Shown: piece after piece, positions 5,387-27,064 of the stretch
How positions within the stretch are numbered: position 1 is the first letter of the stretch
Layout of the letters: each line of letters opens with the position of its first letter
Source of the DNA: Thermoplasmata archaeon
Lineage (GTDB): Archaea; Thermoplasmatota; Thermoplasmata; GCA-020350865
Assembly: GCA_020348445.1 (NCBI GenBank)
Contig: CP070751.1
Location: 4,353,723 to 4,417,722, forward strand
Length of the DNA: 64,000 bases
Direction of reading: 5' to 3'
The notes under the pieces: model-generated
What the model saw: the letters and a program-made list of their open reading frames with translations, nothing else
What the model was told of the DNA's origin: nothing
The model's database searches: none
Translations under genes and position numbers: made by a program

Positions 5387-8300
5387 ATGCCAACTGAAGA
5401 TAATAACACCCTTTCATGCCCTTTCTGTGGAAAAGAGATATCTTATGGCGATACCAAGTGCAGCAATTGCGGCCGAAAATTGATAAAAGAAAAAGAGAAC
5501 GGCACAAAAAGGGGCCTTGGCAGAGCCCTTTCTGAAAAATACTGGAAAAAGATCACAGAGTTGGAGAGGAGGAAGAAGAAGGAGGCCGAAAAACCACAAG
5601 ATAAGGAGATTATCCTGGGTGTATTCTCCCTCATACCAGACATAGGGCGGAGCCGGGCAGAGGCTTTTTGGGACGCGGGTTTCAGATCATTGGAGGATCT
5701 GAGGAAGGCGTCATTGGATGAAATTGCGGCTGTAAAAGGGATTGGTAGGGCATTGGCCGAGAAAATTCAAAGTAACTTATCAAGACCTGAAAAAAGAATC
5801 GAGAGAGGAGAGCTCCTCATATGCACCAATTGTGGTGCGCTTTTAAGCTCTTCTGCCATACGCTGTGGCCTATGCGGTGTAAAGGTTCAAGAGGAAGAGC
5901 TTGCAGAAGAGGAGATTATAGAAGAAGAAGGGATGGAAGAAGAGCCGGATTTATATCTTTGTCCCGAATGCGGGTCCTTCTTGGCACCTGGGGCTGTTGA
6001 GTGCGGCGAATGCGGAGCCGTCTTCGAAATGGAAGAAGGTGAGGAAGTCGAAGAAATCGAGCCCCCACCAAAGATGGTAAAAGAAAAGGAGGAAGTGGAG
6101 GAGCTCAGGGCACTGTTTCTCTGTCCCAATTGTGGAGCCTTCTTGGCCCCTGACAAAGAGGTATGCGATAAATGTGGTGTCAAGACAAGGGAAATCGAAG
6201 AAAAAATCGAGGAGGAAGGAGAAAGAGAGCGGGAGCTTCTTGAAGAAATGTTGATTGAGTTGGAACCTGAAATAGAGAAGGTTTCTGCAGAATATGGAGA
6301 GGATCTATCTGAACTGTTCATTTGTCCAGAGTGTGGATCATTCCTCACAACCGGGGCTACTGAATGCAGCTATTGCGGTGTTGCCTTTGAGGAAGAAGAA
6401 GAGGTTGAAGAGCTGGAAAAGGTAGAGGTCGCACTTGAGAGAATAGAAGCCGCTCTGGAAAAGGAGATTGAGGCTGAAGAAGTATCTGCAGAATATGGAG
6501 AGGATCTATCTGAACTGTTCATTTGTCCAGAATGCGGTTCTTTTTTAAATATAGGTGCAACTGAATGTAGCTTTTGTGGTGTGGTATTTGAGGAGGAGGT
6601 AGAAGAAGAGATAGCAGAGCCTGAAAAAGAAGTCAAGGTCGAAGAGGTAGCTGCAGAATATGGAGAGGATCTGTCTGAGCTGTTCATCTGTCCTGAGTGC
6701 GGCTCCTTTTTAACCACCGGCGCTGAGAAGTGTAGTTACTGCGGTGTGGTCTTTGAGGAGGAAGAGGAGGAGGTAAAAATTGAGGAAGAAGCTCCCTCTC
6801 TTTTGCCTAAAAAGTTACCTGATTTCTGGTATAAAAAGGAAGAGGAAGAGGTTTATTTATGTCCAAATTGCGGGTCCTTCCTTACCACAGGTGTTGAGGA
6901 ATGCCGCAGTTGCGGTGTGAAAATCGAACCTGGGATGGAGATTAATGCTTTAGCCGAGATTTCAGGGGAGCCAAAAAAGGTACCTGATTACTGGATTAAG
7001 GAAAAGGAGCCATCATCTCTATTTATTTGCCCTGAATGTGGTGCCTTCAACAAAGATGAATCCACCCATTGTAGTATCTGCGGTGTAGGCTTAAAAGAAG
7101 AGGTGGAGGAAGAATTAGAGGAAGAGGTTCCCCTTAAGGAGGTTCTAGGAGAAGAACCGATAGTAGAAGAAGAGCCATTGATAGAGGAAGAGCCACTGGT
7201 ATTAGAAGAAGAGATCAGAAGGAAGGAAATCGATTTGGAGGAGGAAATCGCGGAGGAAATCGAAGAGGAGATCAGGAGCTTAGAGGTATCTTTAGAGGAA
7301 GTAAAACCCTTGAAGGTTCCGGGTTTGATAAATGGGCTGTCAAACGGATTATCAAACGGTCTCTCAAACGGTCTCTCAAATGGCCTTTCAAATGGTCTTC
7401 GAATGAGAAGAAAGAGCCTCGCCGGAGTCACAAATGGTATTACCAATGGTGTAACAAACGGTCTCACAAATGGACTGCGTAGGCTCAGATTGGGTCTTGT
7501 CAATGGCCTTACAAATGGCAATGGAATAACAGACGGAGTAGGTCCCATAAAGGACGCTCTTAAAAGAGCTAGCGGCACTATCCGTGTGGTGGTCCTGGTG
7601 GGCATTGTTTTACTGCTTTTGGCTTCTCCATACCTCATTAATTTGTTGATTCCTTCACGTCATCCCATGGAGATCGATGGCGACTTCAGCGAGTGGGCAG
7701 ATATACCTGGTTATTCGGATTCATTATCAGACCTAACTCGAAATCAGGATGTCAACATCGTTGAGTACAAACTGACCATCAACAAATGGGGCGATATGGC
7801 GTTCTATCTAAAAGTGAACGGTACCATCCTAAATGGGATCTACGGTATGGACTCAGTCAATATTTTCATAGATGAGGACGGTAATTCTAGCACAGGCTAT
7901 AGGATATCCACCTTGGGAGCAGACAAGATGATCGGTGTGGTGGGATGGGACCACAATATATATGAGGGAGCTTACAGCCAATTCAATATGTCGCGCTCGC
8001 AATTGGACCTAAACGGATTCGATGTATTTTATAAAATACCTGTTGCCATTGGCAAAGATAAACTTGAGACTAAGATATGGCTTTCCACCCTGAGTATGGA
8101 ACTGAATAGGCCCGTGAGGATACTTTTCAGCGCAAGGGATACAGCGGGCAATGAAGACATATCAGATGTCATAATAAGCCAAATTTACGGTGCCCTTAAA
8201 ATAAGAGAGACGAGCACAGCCCCAGAGAAAATCCCAAAAGGTGCAAGCAGGGTGTCTATGTTGAAGCTTGATTTGAATGCAATGGGTGAGGATATTTCAA

Positions 8301-10384
8301 TAGCATCCATGAACCTTACCATAACAGGCAGTGCAACAGATGCAGATCTAAAGGGGATTTGGGTTTTCCATGATAGTAACCAAAATGGCATATTAGATGA
8401 GACAGTTGATAGAAAACTATCAAATTTGGGCATTGATATAAGCGAGGGCAAGGTAAATATTCCCTTTGAATTAACGATATCTAAAAATGAAGAAGAGACA
8501 TTATTTGTAGCACTGGATATATCTGAAGGAGCAACGGATGAGAAAACTGTTGGATTGCGGATTGCAGAGCCTGTTGATGTTGTCTTCGACCCAGGTGTTT
8601 TGACTCTCATGCCCATTGATTTAGCGAACAGTTACATAGGCAAGGTTGGGGAAAACATCACCATAGATGGTGCATTCGGTGATTGGGATAAGTCCCAAGC
8701 AACGAGCGATACTTCAGATGATGTGCGAAACGGCTACAACAGGGTCGAAAATGGAAACATTGACATAATGCACTACGATACAAGACACAATTTGGAGTTG
8801 CTCGCCTTTTATTTAGATGTTGATGGTACGATGCTTGGAGGCGTAACTGTACCCTGGAACGGGACACGACCCTCTGAGCCTATAAAGGGTGTGCTAAGAG
8901 ACAGTGACGGTGATGGTTATCCAGATCAGGAGGAACCCTCACAATTCAGATATGACTTCGACAACGATGCAGGATTACCTGATGATCCAAATAATCCCGT
9001 GGAGCCAGACACTGGACCAGATGGTGTTGACCATGACAGCGACAACGATGGTATCGAGGATTGGCCTTGGGGTGGAAATGATACTCTCCTTGAGCAGCCG
9101 CGAACAAAAAAGATGAAGTATATAGGAGAGCCTCGTCTTCCATCTAGGCTGCCTGTGGTCACAGGTGAAGATGTGGCTTATATTTTTATCGACGCTGATA
9201 ATGATGTATCAACTGGATATAATGTAAACGAATTAATTGGTGCAGATTTCATGCTCAATATTTCGGGGAAGGGCAACTTAATAACTTCAAAATATCTAAA
9301 CAGATTCAACTCTGCAAATACTAAGGTTTGGGTTTGGAGCATTGTGGGGAATTTGAGTGCAGCCATCGACTCAAACGAGTTGGAAGCTCAGATAGAATTT
9401 TCTGCCCTTGACATTTTGTTAAACGAACCCTTTAATGTCTGGTTTTTCACAACAGATTGGATGGACTCCTATGACCTGTCTGACTTTGGTCTTTCAGATA
9501 CAAGAGGGAGTAGGGGAACCAGGGCTGGAGGCGGATCAAAGGTTGTTTTGAACGAGATTTTTCCAGATGCAAATGGATGGATTGAATTGTACAATACCGG
9601 AAAAAAAGCGGAGGATATAAGTGGATTTACTATAATTTGGGATGGCAATTCTTATACAATTCCACAGGGAACCACAATCCCCTCTGGTGGTTTTCTTGCA
9701 TATGATGTTGGATCCATTTCCAGCTCAGGAACAGTCACCATGAATAATAACAAGGGCCAGCAGGTTGACTCCACAACATATGCCAGTGTACCTTCTGGGG
9801 AGGGTTGGGGAAGATATCCTGACGGAGCAGATAACTGGATATATACCACTCCTACCAAAGCTGCGGCAAATCAACCTGCAGTTCCTCCACCAACTGCTGA
9901 TGTTGTTATCAACGAGGTGTTTCCCGACGCAAACGGTTGGGTTGAGCTTTATAATAATGGTGATAAAAACACAAATATTGGTGGCTGGTACATCGTTTGG
10001 AGCGGGGGAACCTACACAATACCCCCAAATACCAAGATTCAAAAGGGCTCATTTAACACATTTGATGTGGGCAATATACCATCCACCGATACAGTTACAT
10101 TATATGATGTCAACGATGTACAGCAGGACTCTGAATCCTTTGCGAATGTGCTCTCAGGCTATGGATGGGGGAGGTGCCCAGATGGCACGTCCAGCTGGTG
10201 GCTAACAATCCCCACAAAAGACGCAGCAAACACGATCCCGGAATTTTCCGATGCAATTGCACCGATTCTGTTCATCTTTTTCATCTTTGGCCTGATAAAA
10301 AATCGAAGTAAGAAAAAAAGCAAAGAAATCGAAAAGGAAGGGTGTTTAAGGGAACTGGACAAGGTCCTTTGTGAAAGGTCCTAA
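5387..10384 (+). CDS. Giant membrane-spanning protein A: HhH + 9 C4 zinc ribbons + (NGLT/S)n repeat + TM + extracellular module + 2 lamin-tail-like domains + PEF-CTERM
   Basis: 1665 aa ORF. HhH pair (IPDIGRSRAEAFWDAGFRSLEDL..AVKGIGRALAEKI); nine CxxC-x10-CxxC; NGLS/NGLT repeats ~7322-7545; hydrophobic helix ~7580-7650; two VxNEIFPDANGWxELYN lamin-tail-like units; IPEF + hydrophobic helix + KNRSKKK tail. Confidence 0.85.
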   Translation: MPTEDNNTLSCPFCGKEISYGDTKCSNCGRKLIKEKENGTKRGLGRALSEKYWKKITELERRKKKEAEKPQDKEIILGVFSLIPDIGRSRAEAFWDAGFRSLEDLRKASLDEIAAVKGIGRALAEKIQSNLSRPEKRIERGELLICTNCGALLSSSAIRCGLCGVKVQEEELAEEEIIEEEGMEEEPDLYLCPECGSFLAPGAVECGECGAVFEMEEGEEVEEIEPPPKMVKEKEEVEELRALFLCPNCGAFLAPDKEVCDKCGVKTREIEEKIEEEGERERELLEEMLIELEPEIEKVSAEYGEDLSELFICPECGSFLTTGATECSYCGVAFEEEEEVEELEKVEVALERIEAALEKEIEAEEVSAEYGEDLSELFICPECGSFLNIGATECSFCGVVFEEEVEEEIAEPEKEVKVEEVAAEYGEDLSELFICPECGSFLTTGAEKCSYCGVVFEEEEEEVKIEEEAPSLLPKKLPDFWYKKEEEEVYLCPNCGSFLTTGVEECRSCGVKIEPGMEINALAEISGEPKKVPDYWIKEKEPSSLFICPECGAFNKDESTHCSICGVGLKEEVEEELEEEVPLKEVLGEEPIVEEEPLIEEEPLVLEEEIRRKEIDLEEEIAEEIEEEIRSLEVSLEEVKPLKVPGLINGLSNGLSNGLSNGLSNGLSNGLRMRRKSLAGVTNGITNGVTNGLTNGLRRLRLGLVNGLTNGNGITDGVGPIKDALKRASGTIRVVVLVGIVLLLLASPYLINLLIPSRHPMEIDGDFSEWADIPGYSDSLSDLTRNQDVNIVEYKLTINKWGDMAFYLKVNGTILNGIYGMDSVNIFIDEDGNSSTGYRISTLGADKMIGVVGWDHNIYEGAYSQFNMSRSQLDLNGFDVFYKIPVAIGKDKLETKIWLSTLSMELNRPVRILFSARDTAGNEDISDVIISQIYGALKIRETSTAPEKIPKGASRVSMLKLDLNAMGEDISIASMNLTITGSATDADLKGIWVFHDSNQNGILDETVDRKLSNLGIDISEGKVNIPFELTISKNEEETLFVALDISEGATDEKTVGLRIAEPVDVVFDPGVLTLMPIDLANSYIGKVGENITIDGAFGDWDKSQATSDTSDDVRNGYNRVENGNIDIMHYDTRHNLELLAFYLDVDGTMLGGVTVPWNGTRPSEPIKGVLRDSDGDGYPDQEEPSQFRYDFDNDAGLPDDPNNPVEPDTGPDGVDHDSDNDGIEDWPWGGNDTLLEQPRTKKMKYIGEPRLPSRLPVVTGEDVAYIFIDADNDVSTGYNVNELIGADFMLNISGKGNLITSKYLNRFNSANTKVWVWSIVGNLSAAIDSNELEAQIEFSALDILLNEPFNVWFFTTDWMDSYDLSDFGLSDTRGSRGTRAGGGSKVVLNEIFPDANGWIELYNTGKKAEDISGFTIIWDGNSYTIPQGTTIPSGGFLAYDVGSISSSGTVTMNNNKGQQVDSTTYASVPSGEGWGRYPDGADNWIYTTPTKAAANQPAVPPPTADVVINEVFPDANGWVELYNNGDKNTNIGGWYIVWSGGTYTIPPNTKIQKGSFNTFDVGNIPSTDTVTLYDVNDVQQDSESFANVLSGYGWGRCPDGTSSWWLTIPTKDAANTIPEFSDAIAPILFIFFIFGLIKNRSKKKSKEIEKEGCLRELDKVLCERS
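6284..6696 (+). repeat. Three near-identical in-frame direct repeats encoding AEYGEDLSELFICPECGSFL
   Basis: 47-nt exact match between 6284-6330 and 6485-6531; a third copy with few mismatches from 6651. Spacings of 201 and 165 nt are both multiples of 3. Confidence 0.9.
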
Positions 10385-10463
10385 TAAAGAGAATATGTTG
10401 GTTAAGCTTATGAATCATAAACACTTTTATGTCATGCGATTAAGTGGTTTGTGATGTGATAAA

Positions 10464-11333
10464 ATGAAGAAGATCAAGACCGGAGTTTTTGGATTGAATC
10501 CCCTTTTAGACGGAGGGATAAACGAGAACTCCACCACAGCTGTTATTGGAAGCTCTGGTGCTGGAAAAACAACGTTCGCAATTCAATTCATCAGAAAGGG
10601 CCTGGAATCTGGACAGGAATGTATATTTGTGAGTTTAGATGAGAATAAGGAACAGATTATCAGAGAGGCGGTGGAAATGGGGTGGGAGGAGATCATGGAC
10701 TATTTAAAAGAAGAGACCCTGGTGTTCATCGATGCCTCTGGCAAGGATTTTTCAAATTTCATAAGGAAGGAGCTTCACGAATTTGTCGCCGATTGGAAGG
10801 GCGTTGGGGCGAGAATCGCAATCGATCCTTTGACACCCGTTATATGGGCCGTGGAAAATAACTATGAACAAAGGGAGCTTATTACGATGTTGCTTAAGCA
10901 GACAAGAAAGGTGGGCACGGTGCTCTGCACCCTGGAGGAACATGGAACAGAAAGCGATCTTTCCGGAAAGGAAACAATTATCCCAATGTATCTGGCAGAT
11001 TGTGTAATACACCTGCGCTATAAAGCCATGGAGGGCCCAAAAAACAGAATGCTGAAGATAGTTAAGTGTCGAAACAGCTGGCACAGTGAGGATTTCCATC
11101 AATACAGAATCATAAGCGGGTTGGGTTTGGTTGTGCAGCAGGGTGATTTTGAAAAGAAAACGAAAAAGGAGGCACCAGCAGAGCTAATGAAAATGCTTGA
11201 AAAAAACGCAACTTTACTGCCTGAGGGTGTATATACGAAAATGCACAAAACACTGAAAAGTCTTTCAGATTCTGAACTGGGTGATATCACCCATCCCGAA
11301 CTGATACGTTATATAGTCGATGAGTACAGCTGA
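10464..11333 (+). CDS. KaiC/RAD55-like RecA-superfamily ATPase (single domain with C-terminal helical extension)
   Basis: KTGVFGLNPLLDGGI, Walker A GSSGAGKTT, FVSLDE, Walker B RIAID, YLADCVIHL, KIVKCRNS. Confidence 0.88.
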   Translation: MKKIKTGVFGLNPLLDGGINENSTTAVIGSSGAGKTTFAIQFIRKGLESGQECIFVSLDENKEQIIREAVEMGWEEIMDYLKEETLVFIDASGKDFSNFIRKELHEFVADWKGVGARIAIDPLTPVIWAVENNYEQRELITMLLKQTRKVGTVLCTLEEHGTESDLSGKETIIPMYLADCVIHLRYKAMEGPKNRMLKIVKCRNSWHSEDFHQYRIISGLGLVVQQGDFEKKTKKEAPAELMKMLEKNATLLPEGVYTKMHKTLKSLSDSELGDITHPELIRYIVDEYS

Positions 11334-11360
11334 AGCTGTTAGATTTGGATTGTGATGTGA

Positions 11361-12071
11361 ATGCCAAGAGGTGTTGGGAAGGCGTTGGAGAAGGCCATAT
11401 CCCCAAAAGGAGAAAAGGCATCAGATGAGAAAAGAGAAAGAGAAGGTAAGTACGAATTCATGAATAAGAGCCGCCAAGAAATTTTTCAATTTTTATGCTC
11501 CCACCCTTGCAGTTATGTATCAATGATTTCAAAGGCCACAGGACTTTCAATACACGGAATCAATTGGCATCTAAGAAGGCTTATGGAAAGTGGATTTATC
11601 TCTAAAAGGGTCATGGGAAAGAAAACTGTTTTTTATCCCACTGAGATGATTGCAGAAGAAGACATACCAATTCTCGAGGTATTGAATTTAGATAAAGCAA
11701 AGGCCATATATCTTGTTATTCTTGAAAAAATAGGGATTTCGCAGGGGGATATTTGCAAAATATTGGGTTTAAATCATCAAGCTGTTATCTGGTATGCCAA
11801 AAAACTCGAGAATTTAGATCTGATCAGTTCACTGGAAGATGGGAAATACAGAAGATATTATCCGTCCGCACTTTTAATGAAAAAAAAGGATAAATACCAA
11901 AAGAGAATAAAAAACTTCAAAAACAATATAATTGCACGGTTTAAAGGAGAAAGATTATCCCCGACCATCTTAAGGTCCACAGAAGACAAGATAGTGGTGA
12001 GAATAACCCGAGGGACAGAAAAAGCTGTTCTTACCCTGCACACAAATCCGTTCGTTACCGTTCTTACTTGA
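11361..12071 (+). CDS. Transcriptional regulator with two winged-HTH domains (COG3398-like)
   Basis: Two HTH-wing units: RQEIFQFL..HP..ISKATGLSIHGINWHLRRL..GFI and IYLVILEKIGISQGDICKILGLNHQAVIWYAKKLENLDLI..EDGKYRRYY. Confidence 0.8.
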   Translation: MPRGVGKALEKAISPKGEKASDEKREREGKYEFMNKSRQEIFQFLCSHPCSYVSMISKATGLSIHGINWHLRRLMESGFISKRVMGKKTVFYPTEMIAEEDIPILEVLNLDKAKAIYLVILEKIGISQGDICKILGLNHQAVIWYAKKLENLDLISSLEDGKYRRYYPSALLMKKKDKYQKRIKNFKNNIIARFKGERLSPTILRSTEDKIVVRITRGTEKAVLTLHTNPFVTVLT

Positions 12072-12208
12072 ATTACTAGAATATTATATAATGTGCTATT
12101 ATACATTCTATCGTAATCCAAAATAAAAAATCTTACCGTAGAGTGTTTAATAATTATCAAATTAGTAGATTTACATACCAGGATATATATAAGATACAAC
12201 CACTATAT

Positions 12209-12256
12209 TTTCTAATATTAGTAGAATTTCTATTAAGATTCTACTTGGAGTAGAAT
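12209..12256 (+). promoter_or_regulatory. Two 8-3-8 palindromic operators (ATTCTACT-nnn-AGTAGAAT) upstream of a wHTH gene
   Basis: Perfect inverted repeat at 12238-12245/12249-12256; imperfect copy TTTCTAAT-ATT-AGTAGAAT at 12209-12227; both lie between an AT-rich TATA-like stretch (~12183-12192) and the ATG at 12270. Confidence 0.6.
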
Positions 12257-12269
12257 TTGAGGGATTATT

Positions 12270-12878
12270 ATGAGCGTAGAGCATTTTAAAAGTAGAGTGG
12301 ATGCTCTCTCTGGAGAGCACAGTTTAAAGATACTATTTTATCTCAGGGATAGTGATTGGTCCATTGCCTTGGATATTGCACGGGAACTTCGGCTCCATCC
12401 CACAACAGTTGCGAGATATCTTACAAAGATGCACAATGCCGGGATCATATCAAAAAGACCGAAGTGCGTGAAAACTGGAAAGACTTTTGAATACAGATTA
12501 AAATCGAAAAAAATCGATCTAACTTTGGATTTAAGTGAAGAAACTGATTATAAAAGCCCTTGTTCCATTGTGGATTTGATATCAAGAATCATTGATAGAT
12601 TAGAAAAGGTTGGTTGCCCCTTCAATCAAGACATTTTCAAAGATAAAAGAGAAAGGGAAACTTTTACCCTCATCATATCTAAAAAGGGGGACGAGATCTC
12701 CACTTTGAGCAAGAAGGACAAGGAATCTTTTACAAATGCTCTTGAGAGTCTCATCAAATTCTCTGAAAAATCTTATGGTAAATCTGTCACACAGGATATT
12801 GTTCTTTCAGCATGGCGTTCAATGGAGAAAACCGCGGGCGGATTTATGCCAGAATATATTCAGGAGGTGTTAAATTGA
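12270..12878 (+). CDS. ArsR-like winged-HTH transcriptional regulator with C-terminal extension
   Basis: LKILFYL..WSIALDIARELRLHPTTVARYLTKMHNAGIISK...KTFEYRL. Confidence 0.8.
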   Translation: MSVEHFKSRVDALSGEHSLKILFYLRDSDWSIALDIARELRLHPTTVARYLTKMHNAGIISKRPKCVKTGKTFEYRLKSKKIDLTLDLSEETDYKSPCSIVDLISRIIDRLEKVGCPFNQDIFKDKRERETFTLIISKKGDEISTLSKKDKESFTNALESLIKFSEKSYGKSVTQDIVLSAWRSMEKTAGGFMPEYIQEVLN

Positions 12879-13570
12879 AAGTATCATCTGGAATAGAGGG
12901 AGTGGATACCCTTTCTCATGGTGGATATCCTGAAGGTGGAGTGAATCTGATTTCTGGGGTAGCTGGTTCGGCTAAGACACTATTTGCCCTACATTTTCTG
13001 TGCAAAGGCTTGGAAGATAACGAGATGGGGCTTTTAATTACACTGGAAGAGGAGAAGGAAAGCATAGAGAGGGTTATGTCTCTTATGGATATCAATTCCT
13101 CCTCCAGAAAGATCGATATAATAGACCTCGGATTGATAAGAGCAGAGAAGGCCGAGGTTGGGGAGGGAATGGTAGGTTTTTCTGATCTCAAGGATTTCTT
13201 AAGCAGCTTCTTAGCCTCTCATCCCACTAAAAGGATAGTAATAGATTCCATATCTGCCGTGGGTATATATTACAAGGAAATAGAGAAACTCAGAGAAGAG
13301 CTTTTTTCCTTTGTGAGGTTTCTGAGGGGAAATGATGTAACAACAATTCTAACATCGGAGTCTTTAGAGGGAGGCAGTCTCACCAGATTTGGAGTTGAGC
13401 AGTTCCTTGCCGACTCTTTCATTGTTCTAGGTCTTGAAGAGGTCAAAGGCGAACTTAGGAGAACCATCACAATAAGAAAAATGAGGTTCACAAGCCACGA
13501 CACAGCCAAAAGACCGTTTCTAATCACAGAAAAGGGGATAGAGGTCTTTGTCAAAGAAAAGGTCCTATAA
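12875..13570 (+). CDS. KaiC/RAD55-like ATPase (likely TTG start at 12875)
   Basis: GGAGGTG RBS at 12863-12869 precedes a TTG overlapping the upstream stop. KVSSGIEGVDTLSHGGYP, Walker A variant GVAGSAKT, LITLEE, Walker B RIVIDS, GVEQFLAD, RRTITIRKMR. Confidence 0.88.
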   Translation: MKVSSGIEGVDTLSHGGYPEGGVNLISGVAGSAKTLFALHFLCKGLEDNEMGLLITLEEEKESIERVMSLMDINSSSRKIDIIDLGLIRAEKAEVGEGMVGFSDLKDFLSSFLASHPTKRIVIDSISAVGIYYKEIEKLREELFSFVRFLRGNDVTTILTSESLEGGSLTRFGVEQFLADSFIVLGLEEVKGELRRTITIRKMRFTSHDTAKRPFLITEKGIEVFVKEKVL

Positions 13571-18512: not shown

Positions 18513-18772
18513 ACGTTGGCGGAAGAAGGTGATTAGGTTAAATATCTCATTTTCCACCTTACAAAAAAAATAGTGCCAATGATCTACATTTGGACTGGAT
18601 CTGAGTCACACTTGTCATGATGTTACACGGTGTAGTTTTTTTCTCCACAGCTTTACAAAAGTTTGTGACACATATTTAAATTATTCTTTCATTTTTGTAC
18701 AATATATTGCTACAAATATTATTACCCAGTAGTAAACTAGGTACTATATAATAGAGGAGAAGAGGGAACTCG

Positions 18773-21700
18773 ATGGAGTTAGGCTCCTTAAAAATCTTCT
18801 TGAGTATGCACGGAATCAGCCCACGGGCAGCGGAGATACTCTACAATGCTGGTTTTGATGATATTCAAAAGCTGAAGAGTGCCTCAATCCAAGAATTAAT
18901 AGAAATTTCAGGCATCGACACACAAACTGCCTTAAAAATCAGGAATGTGGTTCTTAAGACGGATTTTGACGAGAAAGAAGTAAAGGGCGAGATATTCATT
19001 TGTTCTAAATGCGGAGCCTTTGTGTCATCATCATCAAAAAAATGTGATGTTTGTGGAGCTTCAATAAAGGACTTTTTTGAAGAGGGAAAGCAAGAAGCGA
19101 AGGTAGAAGGGGAGATAAAAGGTGTAAAAGATCACACAAGGGATTTAGAAGATATCGATAATTACCTGAATATCCTGGCTGGGATATTAGAGTTAAAGCA
19201 CGGGGATAGAGCACTTACAATTAGAAAAATAGAAAAGGAATTGGACACCTTCATAGATGAACTTGAAGGGGATATACCACACGAGCTTTATTTATCTAAA
19301 TTAGATATAGAGCCCCTATTTTATTGTCCAGAATGCGGAGCATCGATTACCAAGGTGTCTGATAAATGCGAAATATGTGGATTACTTTTCGGGGAGCCAA
19401 TATTTGAACCTTTGGAATTTCCAAAGGATGATATTAGTATAAAGCAACTTTTTGAAAGGGATGTTAATAAGGCGAGCTTACTTGTGGGTATAAGCGTAGA
19501 GTTAAAGAAGGCACAGGACATACCGGAACTTTGGTACTCCAAGGGTGTAATTTTTGCAGATATGGAAGAGCATGAGCTGGCGATAAAAAGTTTTGATAGG
19601 GTCCTTGTTCTTGATAAGAATAACAGCAAGGCATGGAACGCTAAAGCCTCTTCCCTTGCTAAGCTTGGAAGGTATAATGAAGCGTCAGAATGTTTTGGAA
19701 GGGTGACAGGTCTTCTACTTCGGGCTTTCGAGACGAGGCAAAAAGATGAGGAGGAGTTGAAGATCCAGGAGGATGCTGTTTTATATGTCTGTGGTGAATG
19801 TGGTGCTTTTATCGGCGATTACGCACAAACGTGTCAAACATGCGGATCCAAGGTGATCGAGGATATCGAGAGCATCGTGTCCCAAATTCCATCGCATGAG
19901 ATAGAAGAGGAATTACCATCTGAAATTGAAGAGGAATTGGATGTCATAAGTGTGGATCAGGATATATCGACATTGGTGGATACCCAGCTAAGGGCTAAGG
20001 AACCAGCCTTGTTGATGAGCTGTCCCGAGTGTGGGGCCTTCATAGAAAAGGAGGAAAAGAAGTGTAATATATGCGGGTTGATTTTGGGGGTCCCCATCGA
20101 GGAATCACCAGAAGCACTTGAAGAATTTATTCTTGCCACGACACCCATTGGAGTGGAGATCGAGAAAACACGGCATCTGGCGAGTATCAATGCAGAATTG
20201 AAAAAGAAACCAAATGATCTGGAGCTTTGGTATTCAAAGGGTGTAATTCTAGCGGATATGGGTGAGCATGAACTCGCAATAAAATGTTTTGACAGAATTT
20301 TAACACTGGATGATAACCACAGCAAGGCATGGAACGCCAAAGCCTTTTCCCTGGCAAAACTCGGGCGGTTCAATGAGGCATCCATATGTCTTGCTAAGGT
20401 TGCTGAGCCCGTATTTGAAACATTTGACGAGATAGGTAGGTACGAGAAAGAATTATTGTTCGAGGTAAAGGAAAGATTTCAGACGTGTCTTACATGCGGG
20501 GTGCCTCTGAATTGGGATGATACAGTCTGTTACAACTGCGGAACCGCAGTTGCGGAGTTCAAAGAGGCTGTGGAGGAGGAAGCAAAGAAGGGAGTCTCAA
20601 GAGACTTCCGTAAGCGTTGGGAAAAAATATCTCAATTTGAGGAGCCCATAGATACTGATGTCCCTGTTGAGGAAACAAAAGAACCTGAGGAAATCGAGGA
20701 ATCATTTGAAGAACCGAAAGAGTTTGAGATGCCCTATGAGGAGCCTGAGGTTCCGGTTGAAGAATTTGAGGAAGAGATCGAGGCTCCATTTAAAGAACCT
20801 GAGGAGCTTGAATTACCCCATGAAGAACCCGAAGAATTAGAGATTCCATTTGAAGAGTTTGAGGCTCCAATAGAGGAACCTGAAGAAATAAAGGCCCCAT
20901 TCAAGGAACCTGAGGAGCTTGAATTACCTTATGAAGAACAAGAAGAAATAGAGGTTCCAGTTGAAGAATTTGAGGAAGAGGTCGAAGCTCCGATAGAGGA
21001 ACCTGAAGAAATAGAGGCCCCATTTGAAGAACTTGAAGAACTTGAATTACCCCATGAAGAACCTGAAGAGTTTGAAGTTCCCATTGAAGAGGCTAAAAAG
21101 GTTGAGGCCTCCTTTGAAGAACCTGAAGAGTTTAAAGTTCCCATTGAAGAGGCTGAAAAGGATGAGACTCCCTTTGAAGAACCTGAAGAGTTTGAGTTAC
21201 CAATGGAAGAACCTGATGAAGTTGAAGTTCATGAAGAAGAGCCTGTGGTATTTGAATTAGTACAAGAAGAACCAGTAGAGGTCGAAGCTCCTGTCGAAGA
21301 ACCAAAGGAGGTTGAATTACCAGTTGAAGAACCTAAAGAGGTTGAGGTTCCAGTTGAAGAATTTAAGGAAGAAATCGAAGCTCCGATAGAGGAACCGGAA
21401 GAAGTTGAGGCCCCTGTTGAAGAACCAAAAGAGATTGAAGTTCCAGTGGAAGAATTTGAGGAAGAATTCCTAATTAAAGAGCTCAACGAATTTGGGGCAT
21501 TACTTGAAGAACCAGAGGAAGTCGAGGCTCCTTTAGAGGAACCTGAGGAAGTTGAAGTTGCTTTCGAAGAACTTGAAGAGTTTGAACTTCCCAAAGAAGA
21601 ACCTGAGGAAATCGAAGTTCCATTTGAAGAACCAGAGGATATTGAGGCTCCTTTAGAGGAACTTGAGGAAGTCACAGTTCCATTAAAAGAACTAGAAGAC

Positions 21701-24700
21701 ATTGCGTTTCCTATTATAGAGCCTGAAGAAGTTGAAATTCCATTAGAAGAAATAGAAGATATTGAGGCTCCCTTAGAAGAGCTTGAGGAAGTTGAAGTTC
21801 CTGTAGAAGAACCAGAAGACATTGAGGCTCCTTTAGAGGAACCTGAGGCAGTTGAAGTTCCATTAGAAGAACTAGAAGATATTGAGGTTCGTATTGAAGA
21901 ACCAAAAGAAGTTGAAGTTCCTATAGAGGAACCAGAGGAAGTCAAGGCTCCTTTCGAAGAACTTGAAGAGTTTGAGCTTCCCAAAGAAGAACCTGAGGAA
22001 ATTGAAATTCCATTAGAAGAACTAGAAGATATTGGGGCTCCTTTAGAGGAACTAGAAGAAGTCGAGGCTCCTTTCGAAGAACTTGAAGAGTTTGAGCTTC
22101 CCAAGGAAGAACCTGAGGAAATTCCATTTGAGGAGCCCAAAGGGGTCGATACCTTATCCGAAGAGCTTGAGAAGAGGGGTGTTCACTCATGTCCAAATTG
22201 CGGATGGCCGTTCGAAGAGGGTGCCTTTGAATGCGATATCTGCGGTGCAGATGTTGAGATATTTAAAGAAGTACCATCTATAGAGGACAAAGGATTAATA
22301 AGCATAGGAGCTGAGCCCGAAACCGGGGCAAAAATATCAGGTCTTACTAATGGCCTGACCAATGGTACGAGAGCCCACAGAGGAGGGCTTGTCAATGGAA
22401 ATGGGATAACCAATGGATTTACCAACGGAATTACAAATGGTTTAACAAATGGTCTGAAAAAGGCCAGGTTGGGATTGACCAATGGAATCACAAACGGTCT
22501 TACAAATGGATTAACAAACGGTTTGACAAATGGATTAAGGGCTCTGAAGATGGGTATCACAAATGGTATCACAAACGGTAACGGAATCACAAACGGTCTT
22601 AGTGCGCAAACGGTAAAAACCACAACGAAAAAGAGCGCAAGTAGAATTGTTGTCGCATGGTTACTCATTGTGGCTTTGATATCATTTCCTTTTATTTTGA
22701 GCAATCTCAGTGAGGAATCTAAAATAGTGGAGATCGATGGTAATTTCAGAGAATGGCGTGATATCCCTGGCTATTCTGATTCATCGATGGACCAGATTTA
22801 CAATCAAGACATAAACATCGATGAGTACAAGCTGAAACTCAACAATTTAGGGGAACTCGCATTCTATCTAAGGGTGAACGGGACCATGTTAAACGGTGCT
22901 TACGGTATGGACTCAGTTAATATTTTCATAGACGAGGACGATAATTTTGATACTGGTTATAAGATATCTACATTGGGGGCCGACAAGATGATAGCTGTCT
23001 GGGGATGGGACAACATCATATATGATGGAGGTTACAGCGAGTTCAACATGTCGCACTCGCAATTGGACCTAAATGGTTTCGATATATTCTATGAGATACC
23101 AACTGCCATTGATAAGGATAAACTTGAGACGAAGTTATGGCTTTCTGTTTTAAATGTGGAATTGAATCGGCCCGTGAAGGTGCTTTTCAATGCCAGAGAT
23201 ACAGCGGGTAACGAGGATATATCGGATGTGATAATCAGTCAAATAGATGGCGCGCTTCTCATCAACGAAATAAGTATCGCGCCACTGGAAATCCCAAAAG
23301 GTGCGAACAGGTTGCCAATGTTAAAATTGGAATTGAGTGCAAATGGTGAAGATATATTGTTGAAATCCATGAACCTTACCATAACAGGCACCGTAACAAG
23401 TAATGATTTAACGGGAATTAGCATTTATCTTGACAGTAACGAAAACGGTATCTTGGATGGGACAGGAGATGAAGAAATTGCGAGGATAGACAATGGAATT
23501 GACGAAAGCAAGGTCAATGTCCCAGTTTCTTTGTCCATAATAGAGGACAAGGAAGAAACACTCTTTGTGACCATAGATGTATCCTACGAAGTACAAGATA
23601 TAAAAACCATAGGAATACGAATTGCAGAGCCTAGTGATGTCATTTTTGAGCCCGGTGTTATAACACTAATACCTGTGTATGTTACGAGCAGCTACATTGG
23701 TGATGTGGGTGATAACATAACCATCGATGGGGCATTTGCCGATTGGAAAAACCATCCCTCAAGAAGCGATGCTCACCACGATGTTAGAAATCAGGGTAAT
23801 CTAATAGAAAATCTGAACGTTGATATAGCAAACTACAATGTACAAAATGACTTTCATGCTTTATCCTTCTATCTTGATGTTGGGGGTACTATGCTTGGCG
23901 GAGTAACTGTACCCTGGAATGCAACACGTCCTTCTGAACCGATAAGAGGTGGACCAGTTGATAGTGATGGTGATGGAATACCTGATGTGGAGGAAGCCTC
24001 GGAGTTCAGACATGATTTCGACAATGACGCAGGATCCCCTGATGAACTAGATAATCCGGTGAGGCCGAATACCGGGCCAGATGGCTACGATCACGACAGT
24101 GATAACGATGGCCAGGAAGATTGGCCATGGGGTAATGATACGATCCTAAAGCAACCTAAAACAGGGAGGAAGCGATATATAGGCGAACCCCGTCCACCTC
24201 CCAAACTGCCAGTGGTCACGGGTGAAGATGTGGCTTATATTTTCATAGATGCAGATAACGATAAATCCACAGGTTATTATGTTAATGAAATATTTGGTGC
24301 AGATTTCATGCTCAATATTTCGGGGAAAGGTAACCTCATAACATCAAAATACATAAACAGATTCAATTCTACAAATATTAGAAGTTGGAAATGGAACATT
24401 ATAGGGAATTTGAGCGCTGCTATAGATTCACATGCTTTAGAGGCAAAGGCCGACTTCGATGTCCTTGATATTTTACCAAACGAAACCTTTAGTATCTGGT
24501 TTTTCACCACTGATTGGCGGGACTCATATGATTTATCTGATTACAGCCTTTCTGATACCAGAGACATTAGGGGAACCAGGGCCGGAAAGGGAAATCCCAT
24601 AATAAATGAAATTTATCCCGATACAAATGGATGGGTGGAACTGTACAATCCTACAAACAAACAATTACGTCTTACAGGATGGAGTATAACATTTAGCGGT

Positions 24701-25069
24701 GGCACCTTTAATATTCCCGCAGGCACAACGATCCAACCTGGAGGGTATCTAGTATTCTACATTGGAAACGTTCCATCAACTGATACAGTGAGGCTATACA
24801 ATGCGAAGGGTCAAAGAAAGGATGAAACATCTTTTGCCAGCATACCTTCCGGCTTTGGATGGGGTAGAAATCCAAATAAACAACAGGATTGGTATATAAC
24901 CTACCCCACACCTGGTGATATAAATGTCATACCTGAGTTCAGTGATATTCTTCTCCCTATTTTTATCATGATAATCTTCATCGTGGTAAGAATGTTGAAA
25001 AATGACGAAAAAATATTTAAAAGGATAAACCATGCAAAACTCCGATATGATAGAAACCGGTCCAGATAG
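18773..25069 (+). CDS. Giant membrane-spanning protein C: HhH + 6 zinc ribbons + duplicated TPR pairs + acidic decapeptide repeats + (NGLT)n + TM + extracellular module + lamin-tail-like domain + PEF-CTERM
   Basis: 2098 aa. HhH (MHGISPRAAEILYNAGF..EISGID); two TPR blocks (LWYSKGVI.ADM.EHELAIK.FDR.L.LD.N.SKAWNAKA.SLAKLGR.NEAS.C); NGLT repeats ~22340-22600; TM ~22646-22705; IPEF + hydrophobic helix + basic tail. Confidence 0.85.
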   Translation: MELGSLKIFLSMHGISPRAAEILYNAGFDDIQKLKSASIQELIEISGIDTQTALKIRNVVLKTDFDEKEVKGEIFICSKCGAFVSSSSKKCDVCGASIKDFFEEGKQEAKVEGEIKGVKDHTRDLEDIDNYLNILAGILELKHGDRALTIRKIEKELDTFIDELEGDIPHELYLSKLDIEPLFYCPECGASITKVSDKCEICGLLFGEPIFEPLEFPKDDISIKQLFERDVNKASLLVGISVELKKAQDIPELWYSKGVIFADMEEHELAIKSFDRVLVLDKNNSKAWNAKASSLAKLGRYNEASECFGRVTGLLLRAFETRQKDEEELKIQEDAVLYVCGECGAFIGDYAQTCQTCGSKVIEDIESIVSQIPSHEIEEELPSEIEEELDVISVDQDISTLVDTQLRAKEPALLMSCPECGAFIEKEEKKCNICGLILGVPIEESPEALEEFILATTPIGVEIEKTRHLASINAELKKKPNDLELWYSKGVILADMGEHELAIKCFDRILTLDDNHSKAWNAKAFSLAKLGRFNEASICLAKVAEPVFETFDEIGRYEKELLFEVKERFQTCLTCGVPLNWDDTVCYNCGTAVAEFKEAVEEEAKKGVSRDFRKRWEKISQFEEPIDTDVPVEETKEPEEIEESFEEPKEFEMPYEEPEVPVEEFEEEIEAPFKEPEELELPHEEPEELEIPFEEFEAPIEEPEEIKAPFKEPEELELPYEEQEEIEVPVEEFEEEVEAPIEEPEEIEAPFEELEELELPHEEPEEFEVPIEEAKKVEASFEEPEEFKVPIEEAEKDETPFEEPEEFELPMEEPDEVEVHEEEPVVFELVQEEPVEVEAPVEEPKEVELPVEEPKEVEVPVEEFKEEIEAPIEEPEEVEAPVEEPKEIEVPVEEFEEEFLIKELNEFGALLEEPEEVEAPLEEPEEVEVAFEELEEFELPKEEPEEIEVPFEEPEDIEAPLEELEEVTVPLKELEDIAFPIIEPEEVEIPLEEIEDIEAPLEELEEVEVPVEEPEDIEAPLEEPEAVEVPLEELEDIEVRIEEPKEVEVPIEEPEEVKAPFEELEEFELPKEEPEEIEIPLEELEDIGAPLEELEEVEAPFEELEEFELPKEEPEEIPFEEPKGVDTLSEELEKRGVHSCPNCGWPFEEGAFECDICGADVEIFKEVPSIEDKGLISIGAEPETGAKISGLTNGLTNGTRAHRGGLVNGNGITNGFTNGITNGLTNGLKKARLGLTNGITNGLTNGLTNGLTNGLRALKMGITNGITNGNGITNGLSAQTVKTTTKKSASRIVVAWLLIVALISFPFILSNLSEESKIVEIDGNFREWRDIPGYSDSSMDQIYNQDINIDEYKLKLNNLGELAFYLRVNGTMLNGAYGMDSVNIFIDEDDNFDTGYKISTLGADKMIAVWGWDNIIYDGGYSEFNMSHSQLDLNGFDIFYEIPTAIDKDKLETKLWLSVLNVELNRPVKVLFNARDTAGNEDISDVIISQIDGALLINEISIAPLEIPKGANRLPMLKLELSANGEDILLKSMNLTITGTVTSNDLTGISIYLDSNENGILDGTGDEEIARIDNGIDESKVNVPVSLSIIEDKEETLFVTIDVSYEVQDIKTIGIRIAEPSDVIFEPGVITLIPVYVTSSYIGDVGDNITIDGAFADWKNHPSRSDAHHDVRNQGNLIENLNVDIANYNVQNDFHALSFYLDVGGTMLGGVTVPWNATRPSEPIRGGPVDSDGDGIPDVEEASEFRHDFDNDAGSPDELDNPVRPNTGPDGYDHDSDNDGQEDWPWGNDTILKQPKTGRKRYIGEPRPPPKLPVVTGEDVAYIFIDADNDKSTGYYVNEIFGADFMLNISGKGNLITSKYINRFNSTNIRSWKWNIIGNLSAAIDSHALEAKADFDVLDILPNETFSIWFFTTDWRDSYDLSDYSLSDTRDIRGTRAGKGNPIINEIYPDTNGWVELYNPTNKQLRLTGWSITFSGGTFNIPAGTTIQPGGYLVFYIGNVPSTDTVRLYNAKGQRKDETSFASIPSGFGWGRNPNKQQDWYITYPTPGDINVIPEFSDILLPIFIMIIFIVVRMLKNDEKIFKRINHAKLRYDRNRSR
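20690..22150 (+). repeat. Degenerate 30-nt (10 aa) coding tandem repeat, consensus EEPEE[VIF]E[AV]P[FILV]
   Basis: Units such as EEPEEIEAPF, EEPEEFEVPI, EELEEVEAPF run across ~1.45 kb of protein C. Confidence 0.9.
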
Positions 25070-26708
25070 AACCGTATCTGCAAGCGATGTGGAGAAGTAC
25101 GGTTACTGCCCATTAAGTTGGTGGCTTTCAGAACAAAATGAGAGTGAGAAGGCTGAGAACCTGAAAAGAGGTATTCATAACCACGTTCAAATTGGTAAAG
25201 ATGTGAAAAACATCAAAGTCAAAGAGAAAAGGAGCGAGGAATCTGAGCGAAGCGTAATCTGGTTCTCCTTAATCGCTATTATTATCGGCATCAATGGTGT
25301 AGCAATTGTCTACACCATCTACTCGCCTTCCCAACAAGGTGAAACGATAATGATTTTACTATCTATAATTGCTGCGATTTGGGTATTTGTGGCTGCATTT
25401 TTCTTTTATTGGGGTACGAAAATGGAAAGAGAAACAAAGCGCACTACAATGGCTATCTCTAGTCAAAGAGCCATCTCAACGAAATATAAACCTGATAGCA
25501 GCACTGATTCGGAAATAGTGATAAAAAAAAGGGTAAAAGAAGCCAAATGGAGTACCCTTTTATTTTTTATGGTTAGTGGTATTTTGGCTTTGAATGCATT
25601 ATTTATTTTATTTAGTATAGGTGAAACCAATGTTGAGTTTATAAGCAGTATATTTCTTTTCTTATCCCTGATATGGCTTTTTGGCAGCTCCTTTTTCTAT
25701 TATAATTCATTGAAAAGAGAAATTGTATCAAAAGAAAAGAAGCAAGATGAAAAAGCGATTGTAAAACCCTCATTTTCAGATTCTGAGATATCAATAGTAT
25801 TATTTGCTATTGTGGCCACTGTTTTAGCATCAAATAGCCTTGCTATATATCAAAGCCCACATACGAATATCGGCATGATAATTCTAATAATGGCTGTGTT
25901 GTGGCTGTACGGGGGATTTATTTTCTTATATAGGGCAATAAGAGCAGATGTGAAGCTAAAGTTGCTGATCAATAGACTTTTTAGGCCCGTGGATAGTATA
26001 AGAGGGAAAATAGCCACCCGAGTCAAACTCAGTCGTGAAATAGAGGTAGAGAAATTAAATTACGAGCAAATAGTAATATGGTTTGCAGCAATATCAATGG
26101 TACTAGCAATAAATGCCATTTTAATGAACTTCACAAGGAGCCTTGAAGAGGAGATATATGGTACTTTAATAGCCCACATTTTTGAGGTCGTTGCTTTACT
26201 TTGGTTAATTGGTGCATTTTTCTTCTTATATAGGGTCATGCTTCATTCTTTAACTGCATCGAAATTGAGAACAGAACACGGTATTTCTGAGGGTAAGATA
26301 GATTATGTGGATGCCCTGGATGGGCAATCAGAAATGCTAAGATCTGAGAAATACGGACTTCGGGGAAGGCCAGATTATATCCTAGATAAAAAAGGAGAAC
26401 TCATACCTGTTGAGGTAAAGACAGGCCGCATACCGCGAGGTCCTCTTTTTTCCCATATAATACAATTGGCTGCCTATTGTTTGCTTTTGGAAGAAAAAAA
26501 TAACCGCACTCCTCCGTACGGCATTATCAAATATGGCGACACTCAGCATAAAATAGAATACACAAAAGAACTGAGGGATATTCTTATTAATAAACTTGAT
26601 GAGATGAAAAAAATCATGGTAACTGGGGAAGCTCATAGAAATCATAGACGGGAAAATAAATGTAGGGGCTGCTCCAGAAGAGAAATATGTCCCGAAAGAT
26701 TGGCCTAA
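25032..26708 (+). CDS. Cas4-like PD-(D/E)XK nuclease with an inserted 8-TM domain (solo, no CRISPR array)
   Basis: N-terminal SASDVEKYGYCPLSWWL; C-terminal GLRGRPDY..PVEVKTG..QLAAY and KCRGCSRREIC giving the 1+3 Cys arrangement; eight hydrophobic helices between them; start overlaps the end of protein C. Confidence 0.85.
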   Translation: MQNSDMIETGPDRTVSASDVEKYGYCPLSWWLSEQNESEKAENLKRGIHNHVQIGKDVKNIKVKEKRSEESERSVIWFSLIAIIIGINGVAIVYTIYSPSQQGETIMILLSIIAAIWVFVAAFFFYWGTKMERETKRTTMAISSQRAISTKYKPDSSTDSEIVIKKRVKEAKWSTLLFFMVSGILALNALFILFSIGETNVEFISSIFLFLSLIWLFGSSFFYYNSLKREIVSKEKKQDEKAIVKPSFSDSEISIVLFAIVATVLASNSLAIYQSPHTNIGMIILIMAVLWLYGGFIFLYRAIRADVKLKLLINRLFRPVDSIRGKIATRVKLSREIEVEKLNYEQIVIWFAAISMVLAINAILMNFTRSLEEEIYGTLIAHIFEVVALLWLIGAFFFLYRVMLHSLTASKLRTEHGISEGKIDYVDALDGQSEMLRSEKYGLRGRPDYILDKKGELIPVEVKTGRIPRGPLFSHIIQLAAYCLLLEEKNNRTPPYGIIKYGDTQHKIEYTKELRDILINKLDEMKKIMVTGEAHRNHRRENKCRGCSRREICPERLA

Positions 26709-27064
26709 TCCTCCTCATCTTCCTTACTTTCATCATCATTATTGATATTAGGATTCTTTTGAGCCATTAAAGAGTCAAGTTTGGTATTAATGGACTTAAT
26801 CTCTTCTCGCATTTTCAACATTTCCTCCTCAAAAGGGGTAAAGCCTCCTATAGAGAGGATTCTATGGCTAAGGAACATACCAATGAAAATCGCACCGATG
26901 AGGGCCATCAGAATTAGGGCTACCCATGTGACAATTGCCATCCTGACGAAAAAGAACACATCTGTGATATCTGGATAAAAGAAAAGGGTAAGGAATAATG
27001 CAATAATACCCAACAATATTATCCATCCTATCAATGATTTTGGAGTTTTAACCTTCAATTTCAT
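26705..27064 (-). CDS. Small two-TM membrane protein with a C-terminal coiled coil
   Basis: Two hydrophobic stretches, then FTPFEEEMLKMREEIKSINTKLD; overlaps the upstream gene by 4 nt. Confidence 0.6.
   Translation of the reverse strand: MKLKVKTPKSLIGWIILLGIIALFLTLFFYPDITDVFFFVRMAIVTWVALILMALIGAIFIGMFLSHRILSIGGFTPFEEEMLKMREEIKSINTKLDSLMAQKNPNINNDDESKEDEED

Follow-up and report, generated by a model that had tools for sequence, protein, structure and literature searches.

A window of 64,000 nucleotides (nt) from a Thermoplasmata genome was analysed, corresponding to positions 4,353,723–4,417,722 of a 5.16 Mb single-contig assembly that is 81.7% complete (labelled G000). The nearest named relative of this genome is "MAG: Methanomassiliicoccales archaeon bin396" (CP070739.1; MAG, metagenome-assembled genome), referred to below as congener G001. 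Window positions 5387–26708 encode three giant surface proteins (A, B and C), two KaiC-family ATPases, two winged helix-turn-helix (wHTH) regulators and a Cas4-family nuclease with transmembrane (TM) helices, TM-Cas4. Judged by gene order and sequence motifs, the locus most likely compounds two versions of one conserved Thermoplasmata cassette side by side. An earlier description made from the letters alone (the sequence-only reading) had listed eight co-oriented genes, several with overlapping stop and start codons. All eight open reading frames (ORFs) were found on the + strand, and the overlaps proved real for wHTH2/KaiC2, KaiC2/B (23 nt) and C/TM-Cas4 (38 nt). KaiC1, wHTH1, wHTH2 and KaiC2 are all situated between A and B, each matching its Pfam family. 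The features are listed below.

5387..10384 (+): giant A, 1665 aa; nine Zn-ribbons, helix-hairpin-helix (HhH), NGLS/T repeat, TM helix, ectodomain D1–D3, two lamin tail domains (LTD), IPEF-TM-basic tail
10464..11333 (+): KaiC1, single-domain KaiC-family ATPase with a C-terminal extension of ~60 aa (PF06745)
11361..12071 (+): wHTH1, double winged-helix regulator that partners KaiC1 (HTH_24, two stretches)
12072..12269 (no strand): AT-rich spacer 5' of wHTH2, candidate promoter/operator (read from the sequence)
12270..12878 (+): wHTH2, ArsR/MarR-like winged-helix protein heading the wHTH2-KaiC2-B unit (Pfam match)
12812..13570 (+), likely start 12875: KaiC2, active-looking KaiC-family ATPase (PF06745)
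13548..18512 (+): giant B, 1654 aa, with an inactivated KaiC domain at the N-terminus (Pfam and alignment)
18773..25069 (+): giant C, 2098 aa; HhH, Zn-ribbons, two tetratricopeptide repeat (TPR) blocks, acidic repeat
25032..26708 (+): TM-Cas4, Cas4-family PD-(D/E)XK nuclease with eight TM helices in four hairpins (TIGR00372)
26705..27064 (-): small 2-TM protein with an acidic tail, convergent partner of TM-Cas4

Architecture and topology of the giant proteins

The three giants follow a common plan: a Zn-ribbon-rich N-terminal half, an NG[LI][TS] repeat, one TM helix, an ectodomain, LTD and an IPEF tail. The CxxC..CxxC Zn-ribbons number nine in A and six each in B and C, and the repeat comprises 10–13 units per giant (10 in A). 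The TM helix lies at residues 725–758 in A, 856–886 in B and 1287–1314 in C. HhH motifs are present in A and C and TPRs in C, while B carries a KaiC domain and a K/S-rich tract. An acidic 10-aa repeat of about 42 copies in C is encoded at 20851–22116. With a total length of 735–857 aa, the ectodomain terminates in one or two LTDs, which score above the PF00932 cut-off of 34.3 bits in all giants (A, two copies, 78.7 bits; B, 44.4; C, 58.4). The shared layout put forward in the sequence-only reading was confirmed, except for the length of the conserved module, which consists of a core of ~640 aa plus one or two LTDs and not of ~900 aa.

Cysteines are unevenly distributed, with 27–36 in the heads and 0–2 in the ectodomains. 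N-x-S/T sequons are 3–8 times denser after the TM helix than before it, K/R residues precede the helix, and an ATPase-fold domain is found at the N-terminus of B. Based on these four properties, the heads are predicted to be cytoplasmic and the conserved module to be outside (N-in/C-out).

Read by eye, the C-termini of A, B and C consist of IPEF, a hydrophobic helix and a K/R tail. The (I/V)PEF motif, helix and basic tail are shared with the PEF-CTERM substrates of archaeosortase C (TIGR03024, TIGR03762), and an ArtC-like gene is present in the genome: archaeosortase C is the best match for a 409 aa protein (G000:2831818-2832426), yet at 53.8 bits against a cut-off of 100, and the same protein scores 43.9 on the exo/archaeosortase signature (cut-off 23). 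The giants differ from such substrates in having no N-terminal signal peptide. Instead they have an internal signal-anchor behind a cytoplasmic head of 700–1300 aa, and their hidden Markov model scores remain below the curated cut-offs (B 16.9 bits on TIGR03024, cut-off 23; A and C not among the matches listed). The combination of an internal signal-anchor and a PEF tail would be an unusual anchoring for archaeosortase-type substrates.

Over ~640 aa the ectodomains of A, B and C are 57–68% identical, far beyond chance, which bears out the paralogy proposed for them; identity to relatives in the class is 28–34%. The giants do not form a closed trio. About 20 proteins with the ectodomain module are encoded in the genome, ~17 of them with the full NGLT-TM layout, and they reach 4377 aa. 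Further tandem trios are located at G000:C1:869907-893113 and 1074677-1104330 (up to 4377 and 4239 aa). In the sequence-only reading A, B and C formed a hetero-oligomeric envelope complex, which is hypothetical; giants of this kind are often arrayed in tandem, and simple duplication could account for the arrays. Some 4 kb downstream of the trio at G000:C1:869907-893113, an 844 aa protein with KaiC and Zn-ribbon is encoded.

The ectodomain module of the window matches no Pfam family and no curated NCBIfam model. A profile search of the PDB returned only a TSP3-like Ca loop (5wtl, 27 bits), corresponding to an acidic TSP3-like Ca-loop insert in domain D3. An AF2 model was built from 63 sequences (636 aa, mean pLDDT 88), in which three β-sandwich domains, D1–D3, were recognised with VIA-align. 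D2 (172–323) is similar to the N-terminal domains of sialidases (6mnj: Z 13.3, rmsd 2.9, 139 aa) as well as to CLIPPER or cohesin domains. D3 (325–611) resembles CBM9/DOMON-like modules (CBM, carbohydrate-binding module), with Z 12.1 for Sas6 (7uwu) and Z 11.4 for CBM9 (1i82), and D1 gave generic matches only (Z about 7). Foldseek with the whole 636 aa ectodomain yielded only generic β-sandwich matches of low TM-score. D2 and D3 thus have the same fold as modules of bacterial adhesins and glycosidases (Z 11–13, 135–174 residues, rmsd 2.9–3.7 Å), from which they differ by an identity of only 8–14%, by the absence of a Pfam match and by the Ca-loop insert in D3. As modelled, the ectodomain is a glycan-binding-like, Ca-binding β-sandwich module facing outward.

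In the fold searches, single domains matched CBMs and adhesins, and no S-layer protein was among the matches. None appeared in the PDB profile search either, and to the extent of these searches the ectodomain resembles no characterised S-layer protein, in line with the sequence-only reading. The family is large: among 1.84 billion cluster representatives, a profile search retrieved 958 matches with E ≤ 1e-30, rising to 2604 with E ≤ 1e-10, and the module typically begins hundreds of residues into the matched proteins. In the species-representative genomes of GTDB, 384 related stretches were found, and the best 77 loci are all from Thermoplasmata-type MAGs. Annotated homologues carry only the labels "DUF11 domain-containing" or "hypothetical".

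The KaiC–wHTH–giant cassette and its conservation

On PF06745 (cut-off 26.6 bits), KaiC1 scores 135 bits, KaiC2 191 bits and the N-terminus of B 85.5 bits. KaiC1 has intact Walker A (GSSGAGKT), Walker B and K-x-R (basic finger) motifs; KaiC2 retains Walker A (GVAGSAKT), the EE pair, Walker B and the basic finger. The first ATG of KaiC2 is at 12812, but a start at 12875, overlapping the wHTH2 stop, agrees better with its homologues. In the KaiC domain of B, the alignment shows a Walker A of GPTGLEKE and no EE pair, and on these grounds it is classed as an inactivated KaiC (iKaiC). A degenerate P-loop, GPAGDEKD, occupies the same position in the one distant fused relative that was aligned (L113). 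The fused KaiC is therefore degenerate while its free neighbour retains the catalytic motifs. The Pfam match of B to MEDS is weak; by its motifs the domain fits the "iKaiC/MEDS" class as it is named in PMC5847659.

Two characterised KaiC families were considered and rejected. The proteins are not circadian-clock KaiC (TIGR02655 / PRK09302), being single and not two tandem domains with 73–162 bits against cut-offs of 408–546, nor ArlH (NF052589), on which they score 22–46 bits against an equivalog cut-off of 215. The genome encodes 22 KaiC domains in total.

The order A-KaiC1-wHTH1 is kept in all four congeneric genomes, with the A orthologue directly upstream of KaiC1. Housekeeping genes flank the locus (sucCD and ABCE1 upstream; L7Ae, L24e and NDK downstream), and sucC-sucD-ABCE1 upstream of A is also kept in G001. 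KaiC1 is 81–86% identical among the congeners, against 54–62% for the giants. In G001 and G002 the gene after wHTH1 is a C-like giant. Since wHTH2-KaiC2-B is absent between these two genes, the unit looks inserted in the genome studied here. The spacer in front of it has TATA-like stretches; within it (T)AGTAGA(A)TTT is present three times in direct orientation (window 12150–12262), as a possible operator. wHTH2 has a single paralogue in the genome, likewise adjoining a giant.

Beyond the genus, a survey based on wHTH1, whose family is present in 22 of 41 related genomes, covered 20 loci spread over some 12 other families within the class. A KaiC of ~295 aa lies directly upstream of the wHTH1 homologue in 17 of these loci. 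Directly downstream, a giant of 1.4–2.9 kaa with head, TM helix, ectodomain and C-terminal helix is complete in 11 loci and cut by the contig end in one more. A metagenome relative at 30% identity has the same KaiC-wHTH-giant triad. A second survey started from the ectodomain and covered 46 giants with enough upstream DNA in the GTDB species-representative genomes. Directly upstream of 24 giants a KaiC (free or fused) or a wHTH was found: 17 have KaiC-wHTH, five a fused N-terminal KaiC (two with an extra free KaiC) and two have one partner. Six of the 46 follow another giant. The association of giants, KaiC-like ATPases and wHTH regulators claimed from the sequence alone is thus upheld, the triad keeping its gene order in many of the class's families and relatives having KaiC fused to the giant.

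The cassette is also repeated within the genome. At 603–610 kb a KaiC2-like gene (a 50% paralogue of KaiC2) lies directly upstream of a KaiC-fused giant, at 1145–1158 kb KaiC1-like and wHTH1-like genes stand with a giant of 3667 aa, and at 4654–4658 kb a wHTH2-like gene stands with a giant. The second module, an active KaiC and a giant with a fused inactivated KaiC, recurs as well; in locus L050 the order is wHTH-KaiC-iKaiC-giant, as in wHTH2-KaiC2-B. Three tandem giants of 3873, 1591 and 2533 aa, whose stop and start codons overlap, occur in GCA_964396265.1 (L036, CAYNEM010000002.1), each with an N-terminal KaiC, DUF7504 and TPR.

Two versions of the cassette can accordingly be described. Version one would consist of KaiC1, the double-wHTH1 and a giant, the giant being C by descent, with A upstream in this genus. 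Version two would consist of wHTH2, the active KaiC2 and giant B with its inactivated KaiC at the cytoplasmic N-terminus.

A miniature version of the theme may be present at G000:C1:137332-146149, where four consecutive Zn-ribbon proteins with a single TM helix (285–595 aa) are situated ahead of a KaiC1-like/wHTH1-like pair. After the pair comes a protein of 570 aa that has helices at both termini.

The membrane nuclease TM-Cas4 and its small partner

TM-Cas4 was identified as a Cas4-family protein by TIGR00372 (86.6 bits; equivalog cut-off 65) and by its match to solved Cas4 proteins (PDB 8d3l at 1.7e-8). In 26 homologues D448, E461, K463, Q478, Y482, C26, C544, C547 and C553 are invariant. 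TM-Cas4 has in common with Cas4, the CRISPR adaptation nuclease (PDB 8d3l, 4ic1), the PD-(D/E)XK core (D, ExK, QxxxY) and the four Fe-S cysteines. Unlike Cas4, it has four to eight TM helices after the first cysteine, and it pairs with a 2-TM protein throughout the class. The TM hairpins form an insertion that separates the catalytic core from the N-terminal YCP cysteine; most members have two, and this order has four through hairpin duplication. The AF2 model is of moderate confidence (mean pLDDT 68.9) and shows helical hairpins and a confident nuclease core. Its Cys-cluster tail is of low confidence, so the model is no proof that the four cysteines meet. A CRISPR-associated Cas4 was rejected, as no Cas1 (PF01867) was found in the 81.7% complete genome and no cas matches among the neighbours in the window.

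The gene is present in 36 of the 41 related genomes of the class. A small convergent gene, with a 2-TM product in the window, lies beside it in at least 14 of 28 loci (L022–L030, L136–L154), and the tail-to-tail pair (window 25032–27064) is kept across many Thermoplasmata families. In two genomes of the genus, G002 and G004, TM-Cas4 starts inside the end of a PEF-tailed giant, and in G001 it lies after a giant. The C orthologue of G001 is apparently split into pieces of 986 aa at 705 kb and 1049 aa at 88 kb (L031:16108-19065 and L021:16777-19923). Both pieces end in runs of N inside the acidic-repeat region, so an assembly gap is likely and the split does not speak for a separation of Cas4 from the triad in that genome. 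In the 24 loci examined outside the genus, neither a giant nor a KaiC adjoins TM-Cas4, the only KaiC genes seen being ~5 kb away (L146, L149). From this survey only the ectodomain and KaiC matches are used, since the LTD profile applied in it missed LTDs of L026 that Pfam recognises.

The sequence-only reading had included the membrane nuclease as a component of the system and had named co-occurrence of the components in related genomes as a check. KaiC, wHTH and giant do co-occur there. TM-Cas4 is not with them outside the genus, and its class-wide spread, together with the lack of a Cas1 match in the 81.7% complete genome and of a system match in PADLOC, makes it a neighbour rather than a component. 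It is predicted to be co-transcribed with C in this genus, yet by its distribution belongs to a separate class-wide membrane nuclease pair. The result is negative but useful, as TM-Cas4 is better studied as a class-wide membrane nuclease in its own right.

At L026:9566-12202 (also L027 and L140), an 879 aa protein with two LTD, two PLD-like domains and a PKD domain is encoded directly upstream of TM-Cas4. By these domains it may be an extracellular nuclease or phospholipase. It is a second instance, beside the LTD-bearing giants, of an LTD surface protein preceding TM-Cas4.

Proposed system, alternatives and the remainder of the window

We interpret the locus as a KaiC-coupled surface receptor or adhesin cassette, in which a giant bitopic protein would be coupled to a KaiC-family ATPase and a wHTH transcription factor, with a probability of roughly 0.55. 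The ectodomain would bind either a ligand, surface or glycan, or an adjacent cell, and the clustering or conformation of the cytoplasmic head would be altered upon binding. The head would recruit or release the KaiC ATPase, in version two by means of mixed iKaiC-KaiC2 oligomers. The ATP- or phosphorylation-dependent state of KaiC would control the wHTH and hence transcription, probably of the giant genes too. We infer this course from ligand to KaiC to wHTH from the conserved synteny, the pairing of live and dead KaiC, and precedents of oligomerisation in KaiC-like proteins (bioRxiv 10.1101/2021.03.19.436134).

Several points weigh against this interpretation. For about a third of the giants that could be evaluated (16 of 46), neither a KaiC nor a wHTH lies close by. 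The intergenic gaps of 80–260 nt with TATA-like stretches suggest several transcription units. A CBM-like fold in a model does not show sugar binding. Finally, synteny alone cannot distinguish a giant that signals to KaiC from a KaiC-wHTH pair that regulates the giant gene.

The last point leads to the main rival of the receptor or adhesin cassette, a purely regulatory role in which KaiC and wHTH form a two-gene switch comparable to GvpD/GvpE that toggles the adjacent giant adhesin or envelope protein. The giant would then be cargo and its head an anchor or scaffold. KaiC and wHTH usually overlap or abut, with a gap of ~100 nt before the giant. KaiC-wHTH pairs are also found beside other surface proteins with signal peptides (L044, L045; G000 142–146 kb), and the many giants without KaiC or wHTH fit such a switch as well. 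On the other hand, giants with an N-terminal inactivated KaiC next to an active free KaiC recur in distant lineages, which argues for physical contact between KaiC and giant. The cytoplasmic heads are moreover large, costly and conserved in kind (Zn-ribbon, HhH, TPR), a poor fit to a passive anchor. We consider this rival unlikely, though the most serious of those weighed. That there is no functional unit, and that expanding surface-protein paralogues happen to adjoin common archaeal KaiC and HTH genes, is the least probable explanation. Some chance adjacency is to be expected in a genome with about 20 giants and 22 KaiC domains, but the same order appears in about a dozen families from either the wHTH or the giant as starting point, and domain fusions occur too. 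Given this gene order, chance adjacency can for practical purposes be excluded.

The sequence-only reading had favoured DNA uptake, exchange or defence, with the giants, RecA-fold ATPases and membrane Cas4 acting jointly on DNA as a trans-envelope machine. HhH motifs in A and C, the basic K/S tract in B and the RecA-fold ATPases agree with such a role, as do the C/TM-Cas4 overlap kept within the genus and, in another family, the position of TM-Cas4 after the LTD-PLD-PKD surface protein. However, TM-Cas4 keeps company with its 2-TM gene and not with giants or KaiC outside the genus, and the KaiC-wHTH-giant triad is widespread without Cas4. The Pfam matches to genes examined over the first 31 kb of the window included no secretin, pilus or translocase. 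PADLOC gave no system-level match, only generic ones (wHTH to Csa3 HTH, KaiC1 to mad8 at 33 bits, and Cas4). No Cas1 being found in the 81.7% complete genome either, the role in uptake or defence was not sustained and is regarded as improbable. A known anti-phage defence system was likewise rejected, no specific PADLOC matches being obtained on several components.

Returning to the KaiC-coupled cassette, a more far-reaching proposal is that the giants are the sensor subunits of an undescribed archaeal outside-in system, "KaiC-coupled receptors". KaiC would there answer to a glycan- or contact-binding ectodomain by way of a Zn-ribbon/TPR or pseudo-KaiC head, and the wHTH in turn to KaiC. A, B and C would then be a multi-receptor array feeding two KaiC/wHTH outputs. 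This proposal is tentative, and we give it somewhat less than even odds. To our knowledge, archaea have few classical two-component systems, and their sensing of the outside is largely open. If the proposal is true, KaiC-coupled receptors would hold in Thermoplasmata the place of bacterial histidine-kinase receptors.

The idea of KaiC as a signalling hub was put forward on computational grounds and has been tested in very few cases; the giant family supplies it with a membrane input that is concrete and open to test. One and the same ectodomain is linked to KaiC either by adjacency together with a wHTH or by fusion to a dead KaiC beside a live one. In the hub proposal of Makarova, Galperin and Koonin 2017, as summarised in PMC5847659 and PMC13700489, single-domain KaiC stands beside wHTH outputs, inactivated KaiC (iKaiC/MEDS) is fused to other modules and a hub role is predicted. 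The locus has these same properties and differs, as far as these summaries go, in its partner, a bitopic surface protein of 1.4–4 kaa with an ectodomain absent from Pfam. Neither the triad nor the ectodomain is described in the literature searched, in which the 2017 proposal is represented by papers citing it. The finding would be a case of KaiC-hub signalling with a new membrane input, to which the locus contributes the compound arrangement of both cassette versions.

Among haloarchaeal gas vesicle proteins, GvpD is a KaiC-family ATPase that acts on an activator, GvpE, encoded beside the structural genes it controls. The likeness to the locus is one of gene arrangement. The structural gene at the locus is a surface giant, and the fused iKaiC has no counterpart in GvpD/GvpE. 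ArlH is a KaiC-like ATPase that regulates its partners through oligomerisation and autophosphorylation (bioRxiv 10.1101/2021.03.19.436134). ArlH and CirA have a single RecA-fold domain like the KaiC proteins of the locus, and ATP binding or autophosphorylation controls their oligomerisation and partner binding (bioRxiv 10.1101/2021.03.19.436134; PMC10983859). The locus differs in having no archaellum genes, the partners being a transcription factor and a surface protein.

Elsewhere in the window, two more giant ORFs of 2773 and 1835 aa are located on the - strand at 32224–40545 and 48879–54386. The latter has an N-terminal signal-like helix, as has a similar ORF elsewhere in the genome, and the two ORFs seem to represent surface proteins of another class. 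Between 40000 and 48000 the GC content is 0.32–0.36, compared to 0.40–0.50 around it, and this region may be a foreign island. A protein combining Schlafen AlbA_2, HATPase_c_4 and wHTH, an architecture common in defence-type regulators, is encoded at 29636–30925 (-).

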